Shown in pieces: positions 6,101 through 44,804 of a DNA stretch of 64,000 nt. A program made the position numbers and the translations under genes. The DNA comes from a virus (Duplodnaviria; Caudoviricetes), in IMG/VR virus record IMGVR_UViG_3300045257_000280, positions 1,377 to 65,376 of that record. One strand, given 5' to 3'. Positions within the stretch are counted from its first letter, which is position 1, and each line of letters starts with the position of its first letter. The notes below the pieces were generated by a model. That model had not been told where the DNA came from. It saw only the letters and a list, made by a program, of their open reading frames with translations, and ran no database searches.

Positions 6101-6328
6101 TCACTTAAACTGAGCGCCAGCTTTGTTGGCAATATCGTGGAGCGTCATCGATATTCTGCCATCCAAAGTTTGCTCCATGCAATAGATGCAACGACCCTCT
6201 CTCCTAGTTCCGCGCCTGCCGCAGTTGCAACTGGTGGGAGCGCGGCCTTTCAGCATTTCGGGTGATCCGGTCGTCACCGGAACTCCCTTTACCGCTTTCG
6301 CGTCGTGCGGCCCCATGTTACAGCCCAA
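6101..6328 (-). CDS. Small Cys-containing hypothetical protein
   Basis: 75 aa with CNC and CIYC; fills the gap between the barrel and lipase genes. Confidence 0.45.
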   Translation of the reverse strand: MGCNMGPHDAKAVKGVPVTTGSPEMLKGRAPTSCNCGRRGTRREGRCIYCMEQTLDGRISMTLHDIANKAGAQFK

Positions 6329-7124
6329 AATCGTAGTTCAACCCGAGCCCGTACTGCGTGCCCATGTTGGCCCCGGCATTGACCGTCAGCGGTGCGCCGT
6401 TCGTGGCGAACACGTTGCCGAACGTCATGCCCTTGACCGGGAAGGCAACCCACGCATAGGCGTCAAGCGCTCCGCCGTTGCACTTGCCCGTCGCGTCAAG
6501 CGTGCACCAGATGAAGCCCGACTTGACCATCGGGGCGAGCCCGACAGTTTGCCCGGTAGCCGCACCGAAGCGGCCATCGATGCCAAACTCGCGCAAGCCG
6601 CCGCCGACATACTGATGCGGCACGCCGACCGACACGTTGCTTGGCAGGACCGGGGTGAAGCTCGGGAACAGCGACGCGGTGCCGAGATTGGGCAGCACGG
6701 CGAAGATGCGCTGGATCAGCTCGAACCCAACGTCGAATTCCTGCGTGGCGTGCCAGCGCTGGGCAACGAAGGCGCTGGACCCGCTGGCGCCGGGCGTGGC
6801 GGCAGCAACATTGGTGCCCTTGATGTTCGACCAGCCGCCCTCAATCTGCACTCTCCACCATCGTTGCGGATTGGCGGACAAGTAGCCGCAGGCGCCGTCG
6901 ATAGAGCCGCCAGTTGCCGTCAAACCGCCGCTTACGAGCGACGTGGCAAACAGATTAGTGCCCGAGACATTGGACTGCGCGACATCGGCCTCAGTGCCGA
7001 CGCCGCAGTACCAGGGCGAGGATGCCGGTGCGGTGAACGGTGGCGCCTTGACCGGCATATCCGCCGCCAAAGCCGGGACCGCCAGCGCAGTCAGCGCGGC
7101 GGCAAGGATGAGAGAGATTCGCAT
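6318..7124 (-). CDS. Outer-membrane beta-barrel protein (Omp25/RopB-like)
   Basis: Sec signal ..ALA|ADMPVKAPP typical of rhizobial OMPs; alternating beta-strand pattern; C-terminal YGLGLNYDF; strong AAGGAG RBS. Confidence 0.8.
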   Translation of the reverse strand: MRISLILAAALTALAVPALAADMPVKAPPFTAPASSPWYCGVGTEADVAQSNVSGTNLFATSLVSGGLTATGGSIDGACGYLSANPQRWWRVQIEGGWSNIKGTNVAAATPGASGSSAFVAQRWHATQEFDVGFELIQRIFAVLPNLGTASLFPSFTPVLPSNVSVGVPHQYVGGGLREFGIDGRFGAATGQTVGLAPMVKSGFIWCTLDATGKCNGGALDAYAWVAFPVKGMTFGNVFATNGAPLTVNAGANMGTQYGLGLNYDFGL

Positions 7125-7538: not shown

Positions 7539-8024
7539 CTACGGATGAATTCTGGCTGCTTGGACGTGCATAGCATCAATCGATCCAGCCGACCAGTCGC
7601 CGCCCCAAATCCACCCCTCGTCCTTGAAGGCTTTGATGAGTGGGCTGTCGTCGGTGAACAAATGGTGCTGCGAATGCTGAGAGTTGTCGGAAGCATCCCA
7701 GTCTATTGCGGCGGCGAAGGCGTGCATCGACATGATGTGACCACCTCGGATCGGCCGGAAATTATAACTGCCGTCGTATTGATCGTACCGCAGTTGCTTG
7801 ATTTTGTCCGCGTCGTGGCCAACGCCATCCCACACGACGTTGAGAACGCGGGTCAGGCTATCGGCGCATTTCTTGTTGATAAGAATGCTACCGATGTGTT
7901 CCGTTCCCATAAATAGAGGCCACGGACAAACAACCCGTGTGGTATTTGACTCCATCCATCCAGGTTGAGACGGGTCGCCATAGAATTCGACGCAGGCGTT
8001 TTGCAGCGGCCATGTGTTCATCAT
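7539..8024 (-). CDS. M15-family peptidoglycan endopeptidase (endolysin)
   Basis: GSYNFRPIRG, SMHAFAAAIDWD, WGGDW..DAMHVQ zinc-ligand motifs. Confidence 0.9.
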   Translation of the reverse strand: MMNTWPLQNACVEFYGDPSQPGWMESNTTRVVCPWPLFMGTEHIGSILINKKCADSLTRVLNVVWDGVGHDADKIKQLRYDQYDGSYNFRPIRGGHIMSMHAFAAAIDWDASDNSQHSQHHLFTDDSPLIKAFKDEGWIWGGDWSAGSIDAMHVQAARIHP

Positions 8025-8575
8025 TTGCTCACCATAGCGATACATTGTGCATCAACACGTTCGCGCCTGGCACTCCAACCGCGGCCGTATTTGGCCCATC
8101 CCGGCTGCGTGCGTTTTTTAGCGATCCACTGTTCTCCGATAGCGACGATCATTTCCTTCGGATCTTTCGCTACGATAGCCGCCAGAAGCTGGTCATCAAA
8201 CTTGCCGGTGTGGGGCATTCTGTCGACACATAGTTCAAGGAGGTTGACACCGCCGTTTGGGCCTAGATTAGTGAACACGTCGGCACATCGCACATCCACA
8301 CCGGACGGCAGTTCGTCAAATCTCATCTTCGGCAACACCCATTGCGAGTAAAATTCGACGGCCTGATCCTGGGTCAGATTGACGATGTCCTGCACGGTCG
8401 CAAGCGGGCGGCCTCTGGACTTGTTGAAATCCGTTAGCGCATCAACTGATACGCCAAACCGCGAAGCGCCGCCGGGCTCGCCATGGCCGGGCGGCGTGCC
8501 GGGAGGATTCTGATTTAATTCCGGCCCTTCTGATTCAAGGATGCCATTGATAGCGATGATTTCATTGGCCTGCAT
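8021..8575 (-). CDS. Glycoside hydrolase family 108 lysozyme with PG-binding C-terminus
   Basis: ILESEG...EPGGASRFGV, LTQDQAVEFY..W, LPSGVD, NLGP, KYGRGWSAR. Confidence 0.85.
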   Translation of the reverse strand: MQANEIIAINGILESEGPELNQNPPGTPPGHGEPGGASRFGVSVDALTDFNKSRGRPLATVQDIVNLTQDQAVEFYSQWVLPKMRFDELPSGVDVRCADVFTNLGPNGGVNLLELCVDRMPHTGKFDDQLLAAIVAKDPKEMIVAIGEQWIAKKRTQPGWAKYGRGWSARRERVDAQCIAMVSK

Positions 8576-8625
8576 GCGCTATCTCCATCGCTGCGCGTTC
8601 GCGGCCTTGAGTGCGGGGATGTTGG

Positions 8626-10536
8626 TCATGGCAGCACCCTTATGGTCAGCGACACGTCGGCAGTGGCCGCCGCGCCTTCGACATTTGTCACGCGGAAATA
8701 AAGCGTGTTGGGAGTAGCGAGCGACGCCGCAACAGCCGAGATCGTGGATACGCCAGCGGTGGCCTGTGCATTATTGGCGGTCTGATCCGCGGTAGCTGAA
8801 ACCGTAATCGCGGTGCCGCTCGCAAGCAACGCTTGTCCGCCACCGGCTGTCGCCGTGAACACGCCAAACTGCGCAGTTGTCAGGCTGTGGCTGGCATTTG
8901 AGATATTGGCGAAGTGCAGCAAAATCCGCGTAAACCCGGCAGGCATCGTGAAGGCGAGCGCGGTGTCGGCGATGGCGTTGAAATTTACTGCCAGCGCCGT
9001 GGCAGTAATGTACGCCTGCTCAAGACTCGCCTGCGCCTGTGCGACTGTTAGATCAATTGGCGCGGCTGGGCTGCCGGTGTTGTTGCCCTTGAAGGTATTG
9101 GCCGCCATATTGGCCAGCTTCGCATTCGCGACCGAAGCGGCTTGCAGGTTATAGGCTGCGGTTTGGAGATCGCCAGCATCCGTCTGCGTTCCTTGAGTAA
9201 GAGATGACGCCACATTGCCGGGGAAGAATGTATCGACAGCAATCTGTCCGGTGTAAATATAACTGTTGAGAGCCACTACTCGTTGGCCCGTTGTTCCAGC
9301 AACACCAGCACCAGAAATTGTAGCGCTGCCAAAGTTTGCAGTGGCGTCAGTCAAGAAAAGAAATTCGCTCCCCCAAACTACCGCAGGATTGATTGTAATA
9401 GTTCCAGTCGCGACTAGATTTGCTCCACTCGTAACTGCGGCGTGAATTGCAATGTTTGAGTTGATTGTTTCGTTACCAAGATTGGTGACGGCACCCAATG
9501 TTATGCTGATGTGTCTGCCGTTCGTGCCCCACGATCCCCACACGACGTTGTTTATGTCGGCGATGGAAAATTGTGCCGCGGTAACGCCGAAGGAATTATT
9601 ACCCCCGGTAAGAGTTACGCAATTAAGTGAGAGTTCCCCACCGTCTTTTACGAAAATTCCAAGATCATTTGCAGGTATGGCAAGAACAACGTTTGCAGGC
9701 GAACCACAATTGCCGGTAACTGTGGTTAGGATTGAAGAACTGCCGCCCTCATTTCCTTGTATAGAACAAAGCGCATTATGAGAATCGACACTATTATAGG
9801 TGCCATCCGCAAGAATTATATTTAGATTAGCGCGGGTAAGAAATGTCGCGATGGAATCTCTAAGACTACACGCCCCCTTCAACGTACACGGCGTTCCAGA
9901 AGCCATGCAGGTGTTGTTGGTATCGTTACCGGTCGGGCTGGCGTAGAGGTTGAGGCCGCCGGCTGGGGCGAGTGGAACGCCGCTATCTTTCAGCAAAACA
10001 CCTGTCGTGCTGTCCCACAGCGGAATGTTGCCGACAACCGACGAGTTCGGCCCGTACACGATCCCGGTCGGCGAATTGCCGCAATCCTTCAGCAGCGTGC
10101 CGGCTGTGTTATTCCAGCAAGCGAAATTACCCGAGATCGAAGAAACCGGCCCCACCACCCCCGAGGTCGAGAACGGGAATTGGTAGATCACACCGTTGAG
10201 ATTCAGACTGAGCGGCAGCGCCGCGTCGGTGCCGAAATTCTGCACCGTGATGGTGGCGCCGCCCGCGTCGGTCGCGCCTAGGCAAATTTTCTGGGATCCG
10301 GCAGCCGAAGATAAGGCGCTCCACGCGCAGATTGTTTGACCTTGGCCTACCGTGCCGATCGAGGTGAGAAATGGAATCGCAGCCGTGCCGCAATCTTGCG
10401 CGATACCGTTAGTTGTGACACACCAAGCGTGGGTTGGTGTCACGTTCCCCGATTGTTTGATGGCCGTCCCAGTCTGCGCCGAAGCTACGCAGCAGCTCGC
10501 CAATAAGGCGACGGTGACGCTAAGGCAGCGGTTCAT
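8626..10536 (-). CDS. Tail fibre/spike-like protein with N-terminal export signal
   Basis: 636 aa, G/S/T/N-rich; repeated GPxSSxxGN..W..TxGxLLKD unit; [14 protein letters not shown] start of a beta-helix-like region; [13 protein letters not shown] fibre motif; signal [21 protein letters not shown]. Confidence 0.75.
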
Positions 10537-11011
10537 AAAAACAGCTCACATTCGCCGTCGCCGCGACGCCTTGCGCCGTCTGCGTCCGAAAATAGATCGT
10601 GGTGTCGTTCAGCGCAATCGTGTTCTGATTCACGATCGTCAGCGACTGCATATTGTTGTTGGTGTCGCCCAAATTGGTGCTGATCGTACAGGCAGTCGCG
10701 CTCGCCACAATATTGACACCCGCGGCGGCGGCCTGCGTGTAGACGCTACAAGTTGCGGTGGTCAAAGTGCCTGATGCGCCCGAGATCAGGATCCGGTTGA
10801 TGCGGTAGCGGGTGAACCCGGCTGGCAGATTGATGGAGATCGGGTTGTCGGTATTTGCGGCATTGAAATTAACGCCCAGAATCGTCGATTGGAGCTGCGA
10901 GTAGGTGTTGGCGAATGAAAAACCGGCGTCGCCAATTACTCCATCGGTTACAGCAGCCATCAAATGGCCGGGAGTGACGCTGCCGGATTGAAGAACCGAT
11001 TGGGTGCTCAC
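10520..11011 (-). CDS. Small virion/fibre-associated protein, paralogous to both ends of the 8626-10536 product
   Basis: [10 protein letters not shown]-terminal motif and [21 protein letters not shown]-terminal domain; GTG start. Confidence 0.7.
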
Positions 11012-11069
11012 GGCACCCCCGGCATCAACTGCACCACGATGTTTTCGAGGGTCATGGTGTCGGTCGCCT

Positions 11070-12230
11070 TTAGCTGAGTGGGAGGATTTGTATAGTCACA
11101 TTCGCGGTAGCCGCTGATCCTTGAGCATTTTGCACCCGAAAATAGATAGGCGACACGTTGTAAGACGTTGCCGATGCGCCAACAATTCCTGGCGCCTGCG
11201 CATTATTCGTTGTGTTTTCTGACGCGCTCGAAAGCGTAACCGCTGTTCCCGATGCTACCATCGCGGTCCCCGCCCCACCCGCAGCAGAAAAAACACCAAA
11301 TGTTGCGGTTGTCAGCGAAGCGCTCGCGCCAGAGATTATGACGAGGTTTAACCGATAGCGCGTGAAACCAGTCGGCAGCGTGATCGTGATCGGATTGTCG
11401 GTATTGGCTGAATTGAAATCGACTCCTGAAATCTTAAACAACAGCGTGCTAAGCGCGAGATTCGCCTGCGCCCCCGCAGTCGTCGTCGCGCCTGTGCCGC
11501 CGTTGGCGATAGGTAACGCGACATTCGGATTGACCGAGAATTTCGTATAAGTCAGCGGATCGGTGCCGACCGTAGCAACCGCCGAAGTCAGCAGCCATGA
11601 CGTAGTGCCGTTCACCGTGCCGTTAACGACCGGAATGGCCCCGGTATTGTTGATATCGCTCGGCGCATCGTAATCGAGCGCGCGGGTCAGGATCGGCGGC
11701 AGGATGCCGGTCTGCAACTGCGTGACGTAATAGACGCCGTTGAACGCACCGGACGGCGATTGGGTATCGTTCTTAATCAGGACGCGCTGATTGAGCGCCG
11801 TGAAAGTGAAGCCATCGACAGTAAATGCGGTATTGACAGAGCCAGTGAAGAACGCGCCGATCCCGGCAGCGCCGTTGTTATAGGTCAGCCCGCTGGTGTC
11901 CGAGGCTTGCGTGGTCGCGGCTTGGACGGCGACGGCAGGGTTGACGCCCGCGATGGCGTTCGCGACCGCCGTGGTTGTAAATGACGTGGTCGCGATTTGA
12001 GTGGTATTGGTGCCCGCCGCAGCCGTTGCGGCGGTAGGAGCGCCAGTTAGCCCGACCGACGCTTTGATTGTCGGATTTGGAAACGTACCCGTCAAATCGC
12101 CACCGGCTGCGCCCGTAGTGCCGCCGCTAACCGCATTTGGCACGCCCATGCCAGATTGGTTAGGAACTTGCGCGTTAGCTGGCGCAAAAAATGCCGAGCC
12201 TACAAATAGAAAAAATCGCCGAGCGATCAT
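11070..12230 (-). CDS. Tail fibre-like protein with N-terminal signal-like peptide
   Basis: Start MIARRFFLFVGSAFFAPANAQ overlaps the upstream stop; LTGAPTAATAAAGTNTTQIATT fibre repeat; VQAATT..NQRVLIKN..NGVYYV..LTRA.D fibre domain; shared C-terminal domain. Confidence 0.75.
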   Translation of the reverse strand: MIARRFFLFVGSAFFAPANAQVPNQSGMGVPNAVSGGTTGAAGGDLTGTFPNPTIKASVGLTGAPTAATAAAGTNTTQIATTSFTTTAVANAIAGVNPAVAVQAATTQASDTSGLTYNNGAAGIGAFFTGSVNTAFTVDGFTFTALNQRVLIKNDTQSPSGAFNGVYYVTQLQTGILPPILTRALDYDAPSDINNTGAIPVVNGTVNGTTSWLLTSAVATVGTDPLTYTKFSVNPNVALPIANGGTGATTTAGAQANLALSTLLFKISGVDFNSANTDNPITITLPTGFTRYRLNLVIISGASASLTTATFGVFSAAGGAGTAMVASGTAVTLSSASENTTNNAQAPGIVGASATSYNVSPIYFRVQNAQGSAATANVTIQILPLS

Positions 12231-12661
12231 TTCGCGTACTCGGCATCGATGGTGGCGGTTCCGGTCTGCTGGATGAATCTCAAATTCGCCAACGTGGTGG
12301 CACCCGAGAATGCCGCGCATTGCCCCGCCGCTATGGGCATCCCCACCGAGGAAGTTGGCGTCGTGGTGCCATCCCAGGTCCATCGCACTCCTTGGGTCTC
12401 GGCGCACACCACCGCGTAGGTGGCGCCAGCCGGGATCGTCAAAGCAGTTGAGGACACGACTCCCACGGCGTTTTGTGAGGGTGTGAGGGGTGTGTAGGCG
12501 TAAGGCGCCCCACCCGTCACGGCGAGCGGTACGCTCGTGGCACACGGTGCCCAATCGTTTGGTGCCGCCAGGCCGGTGGGGCAAAAGAGTCGAACGCTGG
12601 CCTGGGCGTGCGCAAGACTTGGAGCGAGCAACAAACAAAGAAGTGCGAGAATCCTGATCAT
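12227..12661 (-). CDS. Signal-peptide-bearing beta-rich protein
   Basis: MIRILALLCLLLAPSLAHA|Q; LTIPAGATYAVV..VRWTWDGTTPT..G.PI motif typical of phage decoration-type proteins. Confidence 0.7.
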   Translation of the reverse strand: MIRILALLCLLLAPSLAHAQASVRLFCPTGLAAPNDWAPCATSVPLAVTGGAPYAYTPLTPSQNAVGVVSSTALTIPAGATYAVVCAETQGVRWTWDGTTTPTSSVGMPIAAGQCAAFSGATTLANLRFIQQTGTATIDAEYAK

Positions 12662-12942
12662 GCGCGCCTCACCAGATAATTCGCCGTCAGGACGAACAAC
12701 GCGTAGATGGTCAGCGACACGATCTGATAGATGTCCGGCTTAGGGGTGAGATACCACAACCAGAACGCCGAGCCGACCGTGAGCAGCGGAAACACCGATG
12801 CGAACGCGATCAGCGCCCGCTGCGACAGAGCCTTAAGACCCAGCCGCAGCATCTCGAAGCCGACCTGATCGGCGTGACCCGCCTGCCCGCCTTCGGCGGG
12901 TTCAGTTTCGGGAACGACTTCAAGCCGGAATGGTTCGGCCAT
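12658..12942 (-). CDS. Two-TM membrane protein
   Basis: MAEPFRLEVV start with GGAG RBS; two hydrophobic segments. Confidence 0.6.
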   Translation of the reverse strand: MAEPFRLEVVPETEPAEGGQAGHADQVGFEMLRLGLKALSQRALIAFASVFPLLTVGSAFWLWYLTPKPDIYQIVSLTIYALFVLTANYLVRRA

Positions 12943-44479: not shown

Positions 44480-44508
44480 AGTGTAGTTTGTTGTAGTTTT
44501 TAAGTCAA
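44480..44508 (-). promoter_or_regulatory. sigma70-like promoter of the glycan operon
   Basis: TTGACT-N17-TACACT. Confidence 0.7.
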
Positions 44509-44804
44509 GCCCCGCCGATACCACCGGGCGAAGATAGCGTTCGGACGTTGCTTGGCGCAGCATCTTCGCCGCGACCGTCGATCCAATCGTCGTAATTCTC
44601 GGGCGGCCGGATCCCAACCTCCATCAGCTCGCGCGAGGTGAAGGGCTTGTTGGGATCGCGGAACTCGATCTGCGGGGGCCGCGGGGTGAACAGGCCCGCC
44701 AGGAAAGAAGAAAAAGAAAGCAAGAAAATTCCGGCGACGAGGTAGTCGTTGAGGATCAGGGCGACGGCTGAGCCGACCAGAAAGAGGGGGATGAGGGTTT
44801 TCAT
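44505..44804 (-). CDS. Two-TM membrane protein
   Basis: Hydrophobic N-terminal half. Confidence 0.6.
   Translation of the reverse strand: MKTLIPLFLVGSAVALILNDYLVAGIFLLSFSSFLAGLFTPRPPQIEFRDPNKPFTSRELMEVGIRPPENYDDWIDGRGEDAAPSNVRTLSSPGGIGGA

Follow-up and report, generated by a model that had tools for sequence, protein, structure and literature searches.

Putative export leaders on tail-fibre-type proteins of a tailed phage point to probable folding of its host-recognition proteins in the periplasm

Tailed phages are classically regarded as completing their particles in the cytoplasm, and the locus considered here raises the question of what becomes of tail-fibre-type proteins that begin with leaders resembling export signals. 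The locus lies on the minus strand between positions 8626 and 12942 of a 64,000-nucleotide stretch of DNA (the window), which comprises bases 1377-65376 of the 65,376-base virus record IMGVR_UViG_3300045257_000280 (Caudoviricetes), a record that features direct terminal repeats and is rated 100% complete. Four proteins, termed A, B, C and D from upstream to downstream, are encoded in the fibre position and are preceded by the small gene E. A previous reading of the nucleotide sequence (the sequence-only reading) had proposed that three of the four begin with signal-like leaders, and that these proteins are exported and folded oxidatively. The leaders of A, B and D are present where they had been placed, on the minus strand, and the second proposal gains support from the conservation of the leaders, the position of the cleavage motif, the parity of the cysteine counts and the covariation of one cysteine pair. 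Export of A, B and D with oxidative folding in the periplasm is assigned a probability of roughly 0.8.

Leaders were recognized as signal-peptide-like (SP-like) by a crude rule of our own rather than by a trained predictor; the rule asks for a charged n-region, an uncharged hydrophobic core and small residues at -3 and -1. Protein A (12227-12661, minus strand; 144 amino acids, aa) begins MIRILALLCLLLAPSLAHAQ and has its leader in codons 1-19 (12605-12661), while B (11070-12230, minus strand; 386 aa) has its true start at the ATG at 12230, begins MIARRFFLFVGSAFFAPANAQ and has its leader in codons 1-20 (12171-12230). In the tailspike-like protein D (8626-10536, minus strand; 636 aa) the leader likewise occupies codons 1-20 (10477-10536). 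All three leaders exhibit the n-h-c layout, end in small-x-small followed by Gln and pass the rule; the leader of B, previously regarded as the weaker one, is not weak. Their hydrophobic cores span 10-15 residues, within the range of about 7-15 expected for the h-region of Sec-type signal peptides, and cores of this length are typical of cleaved signals rather than of membrane anchors. C (10520-11011, minus strand; 163 aa) and E (12658-12942, minus strand; 94 aa) fail the rule. The latter precedes the block as a two-transmembrane (two-TM) protein, as had been noted before, with hydrophobic 19-residue windows at about residues 42-63 and 73-91. By this rule, three of the four fibre-block proteins are SP-like versus 3 of the 60 other window proteins (one-sided Fisher p = 0.0018), the latter three being an outer-membrane barrel, a 99-aa membrane protein and one probable false call. 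None of the 20 other structural or lysis proteins was called SP-like.

The sequence-only reading had allowed for true starts downstream of the hydrophobic stretch, yet the starts are found at the leaders themselves. Those of A and B are fixed by ATGA overlaps, which join the E stop to the A ATG and the A stop to the B ATG. The ATG of D lies 17 nucleotides (nt) before the C stop and is preceded by a GTGAG box, and no in-frame start occurs between the leader and the conserved QSGNVTP motif. Longer forms of B, namely 522 aa from a TTG in the open reading frame (ORF) list and 437 aa in the source's own call P0077, both extend back into A in another frame, P0077 starting 51 codons upstream of the B ATG (12231-12383, minus strand). 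Since the C-terminus of A is strongly conserved in A's own frame, the 522-aa form is regarded as spurious and P0077 as a probable mis-start, one that hides the leader of B from automatic annotation. Greedy ORF sets, which mis-call B and drop A or D, are excluded from the gene counts given below. A bypass of the leader by internal initiation was rejected for A and D, which lack an in-frame start ahead of their conserved N-terminal motifs. In B, an in-frame ATG is located at codon 27 (12150-12152, minus strand), six codons past the predicted cleavage site and with no obvious ribosome-binding site upstream; this start could yield a leaderless isoform laid out like the leaderless fibre protein P0080.

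Conservation in homologues, on which the proposal had been made to depend, is observed: the n-h-c pattern is kept in divergent family members, and the leader sequence itself drifts. In the D family, 43 of 75 matches are SP-like overall and 35 of the 39 best ones; the four misses among the latter have the hydrophobic stretch further in or, as in P0037, resemble a fusion or frameshift. Matches of D without a leader mostly have only a short fibre motif in common with it, and Rhodobacter phage proteins sharing this motif are leaderless and encoded among replication genes. The A family comprises 1405 representatives at E<=0.001, and 112 of the 150 matches listed are SP-like. For B the fraction is 39/119, the remainder being classic leaderless fibres.

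The position of the putative cleavage site is equally regular. All 26 motif-bearing sequences of the D type place small-x-small-Q 3-6 residues ahead of the QSGxVTP motif, and in each of the seven leaderless C proteins (window counted) this motif starts at a distance of 3-6 residues from Met-1. Given this similar spacing, the predicted mature end of D matches the natural end of its leaderless paralogue, and since the motif is close to Met-1 in every C protein, the leader appears to be an add-on to a real N-terminus. Gln occupies +1 of the predicted site in 38 of 43 (D), 29 of 39 (B) and 75 of 112 (A) leader-bearing homologues, where the choice of the cleavage site ignored the +1 residue. In the phage-borne outer-membrane barrel family, +1 is Ala in 66 of 70 members and Gln in none.

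Two other export routes were considered and are not favoured. The LASC lipobox previously pointed out in D is indeed present, but it is not conserved: a lipobox-like site (consensus [LVI][ASTVI][GAS]C) occurs in 13 of 26 D-type leaders, 5 of the 26 are without any Cys, and A and B have no lipobox. Conservation thus lends no support to processing of D as a lipoprotein by signal peptidase II. The Tat consensus reads S/T-R-R-x-F-L-K, and the B leader contains RRFFLF; a Tat reading of B was set aside because the twin arginine is not conserved, being absent from the leader-bearing homologue P0079. A twin-arginine-like leader was seen by eye in a 451-aa protein encoded beside the D homologue of the related locus L013 (L013:11106-12461, plus strand), which matches the NCBIfam GTA_spike_fiber domain (E 1.6e-45). 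No Tat-signal model in NCBIfam matched B or this protein at E<=1, in a search that may filter out short models.

The cysteine content provides a second line of evidence. Even counts in the mature part prevail among leader-bearing homologues (39 of 43 for D, 28 of 31 for B and 102 of 104 for A, the last counted for members with Cys), and even and odd counts are divided 7/20, 18/32 and 8/18, respectively, among homologues for which no leader was called. Furthermore, the pair C39/C49 of D is retained or lost as a unit, both residues being found in 15 homologues, neither in 9 and a single one in none. Within the window the mature parts of A, B and D contain 4, 0 and 12 Cys, respectively, and leaderless C contains 3; the four Cys pairs and the fibre motifs quoted in the sequence-only reading are all present. 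The data support even parity of the leader-bearing proteins as a probable signature of an oxidising compartment.

The folds assigned to these proteins are those of phage fibres and spikes. The model of D (predicted local distance difference test, pLDDT, 75) comprises a leader helix at residues 2-19, a modestly predicted N-domain that is conserved in the family (aa 21-155; 10072-10476), a right-handed beta-helix with pLDDT >95 (aa 195-450; 9187-9954), a fibre-motif linker (aa 459-506) and a beta-sandwich of the jelly-roll type as tip (aa 508-636; 8629-9015). Foldseek relates D to the tail fibres of Agrobacterium phage 7-7-1 (9rkv) and the tailspike of Acinetobacter phage P1 (6e1r) at E<=5e-4, as well as to pectin-active enzymes, and retrieves 68 viral models at E<=0.001, many of them named tail spike, tail fibre or pectate lyase. 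Judged from its model, D is a tailspike-type beta-helix protein. The N-domain of D scored below 0.9 in the ESM Atlas, with structural TM <0.35. The GC content of window positions 8001-10000 is 0.544, compared with 0.58-0.61 on both flanks, and gene D falls below the GC3>=0.6 filter that most window genes exceed; on this basis D may be a recent acquisition.

In B, the leader is followed by a Gly-rich region, a fibre repeat, a knob (aa 87-250; 11481-11972) and a jelly-roll tip (aa ~263-386; 11073-11444). Residues 87-349 align to residues 251-501 of chain AE in PDB entry 9EFK, which has 18 chains (E 1.9e-17). The passages available from its description identify 9EFK as a portal-tail complex from Legionella phage LME-1 with six trimers of the tail fibre (PMC12407071); chain AE is taken to be this fibre. 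Proteins annotated as tail fibres in Pelagibacter and Synechococcus phages match the knob at 34-39%, and aa 45-235 of B (191 residues) are 90% identical to leaderless P0080.

Leaderless C consists of an N-terminal QSG-VTPGH motif and a jelly-roll tip at aa 40-163 (10523-10894), where its AF2 model (pLDDT 74) shows a beta-sandwich. That C shares both its N- and C-terminal modules with its neighbours, as had been claimed, is borne out by alignment: it matches the C-terminal domain of D at 38% over 149 aa (E 5e-18), the N-terminal motif of D in 11 of 26 positions (E 6e-4) and the C-terminal domain of B at 51% identity. Hence, B, C and D have a C-terminal beta-sandwich tip of ~120 aa in common. 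The C model had no Foldseek match in the PDB at E<=0.001 and, in the wide structure search of VIA, only generic matches of the jelly-roll or carbohydrate-binding module (CBM) type (Z<=8.6), and the tip is therefore given no family name. With regard to the earlier suggestion that leaderless C could be the dock, a complex prediction of C with D residues 21-160 (score 0.00, mark 0.32) speaks neither for nor against binding.

Through its C-terminal domain of ~100 aa, A is a member of a large family of small proteins borne by phages, and 94-100% of its neighbours in the Atlas are viral. The mature part of A, with the four Cys, is proposed to fold as a small beta domain held by Cys bonds. Searches with A produced no match in Pfam, PHROGs or cultured phages. 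Pfam and PHROGs likewise contain no family for C, D, E and the neighbouring small protein F, B has weak PHROG matches only, and NCBIfam yielded nothing meaningful. In a PDB sequence search, D and the 777-aa, 332-aa and 258-aa tail proteins remained without a match at E<=1. A known virion-anchor or docking domain was not found among Pfam, PHROG or PDB sequence matches of the N-terminal parts.

Seventeen viral loci encode the D N-domain, and among them the surroundings of the fibre block are conserved to a considerable degree. The order of a 571-aa protein, G, F, E, fibre block and lysis genes is kept in five loci (L004, L005, L007, L013 and L019), each of which has an E homologue ahead of the block. 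C lies directly upstream of D in all six loci having it (L004, L005, L006, L013, L019 and the window), and it is leaderless in all seven homologues; the two genes overlap by ATGA in L013 and L019. Moreover, the stop of E is coupled by ATGA to the first leader-bearing gene in five of six loci (the window, L004, L005, L007 and L019), the exception being L013, where the next gene encodes a leaderless 995-aa fibre in the first slot. After correction of starts, leaders are carried by 4 of 5 fibre-block genes in L004, 3 of 4 in L005, the single one in L007 (1/1), 2 of 8 in L013 and 3 of 5 in L019; L006 is not included in this tally.

A single type of fibre body may or may not carry the leader: leader-bearing P0079 and leaderless P0080 are 74% identical. 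Viral loci encoding the knob domain number 11 usable ones, that is, 13 minus L028 and L033, in which the match begins at the contig end. A leader is present in 3 of the 11 and absent from 8, and upstream stops are close by. Distal parts are likewise exchanged: the D family combines a conserved N-domain with swapped distal parts, and D tips in relatives are often unlike the tip of C. In the window itself, an earlier B-type fibre gene has left a remnant of its 3' end in the 58-nt spacer between B and C (11008-11067, minus strand), and its TGA overlaps the GTG start of C. Translated, the spacer corresponds to the terminal 20 codons of a gene of the P0079/P0080 type and is identical in 17 of 18 residues to the C-termini of these two proteins, which indicates that the distal half of B was replaced by the jelly-roll tip domain.

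Between about 35 and 4 kb of the window, read along the minus strand, the gene order starts with a weak terminase match, which precedes portal, head and tail genes. Next come three large proteins that lack cysteine (341, 571 and 1016 aa); the 1016-aa one has a weak PHROG match to tape-measure proteins. The small genes F and E then lead on to the fibre block A, B, C, D, behind which are encoded a GH108 muramidase, an M15 peptidase, a holin-like protein and the outer-membrane barrel. A-D are best explained as the distal host-recognition module of a phage of the short-tailed type, situated between large proteins of the internal or ejection type and the lysis genes.

The outer-membrane barrel (6318-7124, minus strand) has 73 homologues at E<=1e-5, one of which carries the source annotation 'opacity protein-like surface antigen'; many are found on contigs of 64-74 kb, so the barrel seems to travel with phages of that size class. 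Upstream, between 37000 and 44000 (minus strand), Pfam matches to an NAD-dependent epimerase, a GDP-mannose dehydratase-like protein, an FkbM methyltransferase and tetratricopeptide (TPR) repeats agree with a glycan-building module, and the 99-aa protein (44505-44804, minus strand), with its signal-like or membrane-anchor N-terminus, is encoded among early or glycan genes. Cultured relatives did not emerge: among 50,697 phage records, neither A nor G, the gene between the 571-aa protein and F, had a tblastn match, and the portal matched just two uncultured records at 27-28%. A scan of viral contigs with protein A as the single query gave no match. As to the host, a scan of genome contigs led to one 1.9-kb contig of a metagenome-assembled genome (MAG), and the search for barrel homologues gave no organism names; a Bradyrhizobium-like host is a conjecture. 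Among the Pfam families matched by 54 other window proteins (25 of 27 listed), there is no phage-encoded disulfide oxidoreductase, signal peptidase or glutaminyl cyclase.

If the leaders act as predicted, A, B and D would be translated from the leader ATG late in infection, alongside the structural operon. The host Sec machinery would then thread them into the periplasm, where signal peptidase I would cut after small-x-small to leave an N-terminal Gln. Folding and disulfide bonding in the periplasm would convert D into a beta-helix with a jelly-roll tip, B into a knob with a similar tip and A into a small Cys-bonded beta domain, while leaderless C, equipped with the same N-terminal motif and tip, would remain in the cytoplasm. 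As a guess, the periplasmic pool would not be built onto particles; at or after lysis it would act as free glycan-binding or glycan-cutting trimers on the host envelope and on debris. Destruction or masking of receptors and clearing of polysaccharide would in this way keep the progeny from being lost on dead cells. The chain as a whole, including the guessed fate as free protein, is put forward tentatively and at somewhat less than even odds.

A role apart from the virion is suggested by the retention of leaderless C in every relative and by the leaderless 995-aa fibre in the same slot of L013. Moreover, exported bacterial proteins with such folds are known. In Bdellovibrio bacteriovorus, the mosaic adhesive trimer (MAT) fibres have a signal peptide, a conserved beta-rich N-domain of ~130 aa, which has no structural homologue in the PDB, and a variable fibre, as the accessible parts of the study report (Caulton et al. 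2024, PMC10769870). Going by these parts, MAT fibres and the D family are alike in architecture only, and both are proposed to work outside the cytoplasm; MAT proteins are encoded by chromosomal predator genes and displayed on the surface, whereas A-D are encoded by phage structural-operon genes and have no S74 domain. WceF of Pantoea stewartii is described in the passages available as a trimeric beta-helix of tailspike-like fold, which is exported by Tat and acts on the exopolysaccharide (EPS) of the producing cell (PMC7949094). It belongs to the same fold class as D and, to the extent of these passages, provides an example of a tailspike-type beta-helix that bacteria export, although WceF is encoded by a host gene in an EPS cluster and has a Tat signal, whereas the D leader is Sec-like. 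With regard to the Gln at the mature end, the consulted excerpts on Porphyromonas gingivalis phages report Sec-signal proteins that obey the 'Bacteroidetes Q-rule' and expose Gln (Matrishin et al. 2023, PMC10367356). These excerpts name capsid proteins, spanins and five unknown genes rather than tail fibres, and the rule as given there is a property of the host phylum, whereas here the barrel of the same phage group never has Gln at +1.

Exported phage proteins acting on receptors have a counterpart in Llp of T5 and Cor of T1 and phi80, small receptor-blocking phage lipoproteins encoded beside the receptor-binding gene. They are exported and act on the receptor, by which they protect progeny or keep out superinfecting phages; probable export, a location beside receptor-binding genes and a conjectured action on receptors are the parallels in the proteins described here. 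In contrast to these small lipoproteins, which have no relation to fibres, A, B and D (144-636 aa) are homologous to fibres or spikes, and in the D family the lipobox is not conserved.

Several considerations weigh against the proposed free role and the leader calls on which it builds. A and B are without an enzyme-like domain, and D tips that often differ from the C tip weaken a decoy model that needs matched specificity. In addition, the homologue counts come from related sequences and do not represent independent events, and the leader calls stem from a crude heuristic rather than from a trained predictor or experiment. Other points speak at the same time for the strongest rival, in which A, B and D are exported, cleaved and disulfide-bonded as above and join the tail as virion fibres when holin lesions or lysis mix the two pools. 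Position and translational coupling tie the fibre-block genes to the structural genes, the conserved N-domain of the D family with its swapped distal domains is a pattern typical of particle-docking proteins, and besides the 163-aa C neither a leaderless receptor-binding candidate nor another long leaderless fibre was detected in the genome. Furthermore, the knob of B recurs in the LME-1 fibre, which cryo-electron microscopy (cryo-EM) places on the virion in 9EFK, as far as the available text of that study goes, and near-identical fibres exist with and without leader (P0079/P0080, 74%; B/P0080, 90%; 3 versus 8 knob loci). More generally, the LME-1 tail fibre (9EFK), the P1 tailspike (6E1R) and the 7-7-1 fibres (9RKV) resemble B and D in fold, in encoding at the end of the structural operon and in modular distal swaps. 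For these particle proteins, however, no leader is reported (in the passages of the LME-1 paper, PMC12407071, 'signal peptide' occurs 0 times), whereas A, B and D carry conserved leaders of the cleavable type together with even Cys counts. Assembly onto virions would also have to overcome the inner membrane, which would separate the particle from the fibre until lysis; the analysis identified no docking partner, and leaderless C is always retained. Moreover, the literature searched, with subscription journals and supplements outside its scope, contained no account of tailed phages whose tail-fibre modules bear secretion signals, and hence no precedent. Taken together, virion fibres matured in the periplasm are considered unlikely, and the broader notion of an entire tailed-phage clade whose virions reach completion outside the cytoplasm, with Sec-exported and Gln-trimmed fibres added at lysis, is improbable.

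By analogy with what has been proposed for MAT fibres, the N-domain of D could instead bind an element of the host envelope, such that the cell, its debris or vesicles carry adhesins or depolymerases. The MAT-like layout of the D family fits this display on the surface, but no outer-membrane targeting or secretion signal was recognised, Pfam revealed no S74 chaperone domain, and a late lytic operon leaves little time for a function on the surface, which renders the possibility highly doubtful. That the proteins are not exported at all, their N-termini being uncleaved assembly or anchoring helices or being bypassed by internal starts so that fibres assemble in the cytoplasm as usual, draws on the ATG just past the leader of B and on the same fibre bodies working without leaders elsewhere, but is quite improbable in view of the missing internal starts in A and D, the n-h-c pattern with a small-x-small-Q site conserved in 26/26 sequences, the even Cys parity that tracks the leader and the ATGA coupling of the leader starts.

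Export to the periplasm, with a subsequent fate either on or apart from the virion, implies that some host-recognition proteins of this phage group probably fold in the periplasm, as far as can be judged from sequence. Either way, such fibres or depolymerases would have to be folded oxidatively and freed of the leader for recombinant use. Should the proteins become part of the virion, assembly would have an extracytoplasmic step, Sec, signal peptidase and Dsb would become determinants of host range, and pipelines that discard signal-positive proteins as non-structural would miss receptor-binding proteins. If they do not, soil phages would encode widespread secreted fibre-like glycan binders or depolymerases that shape the outcome of lysis.

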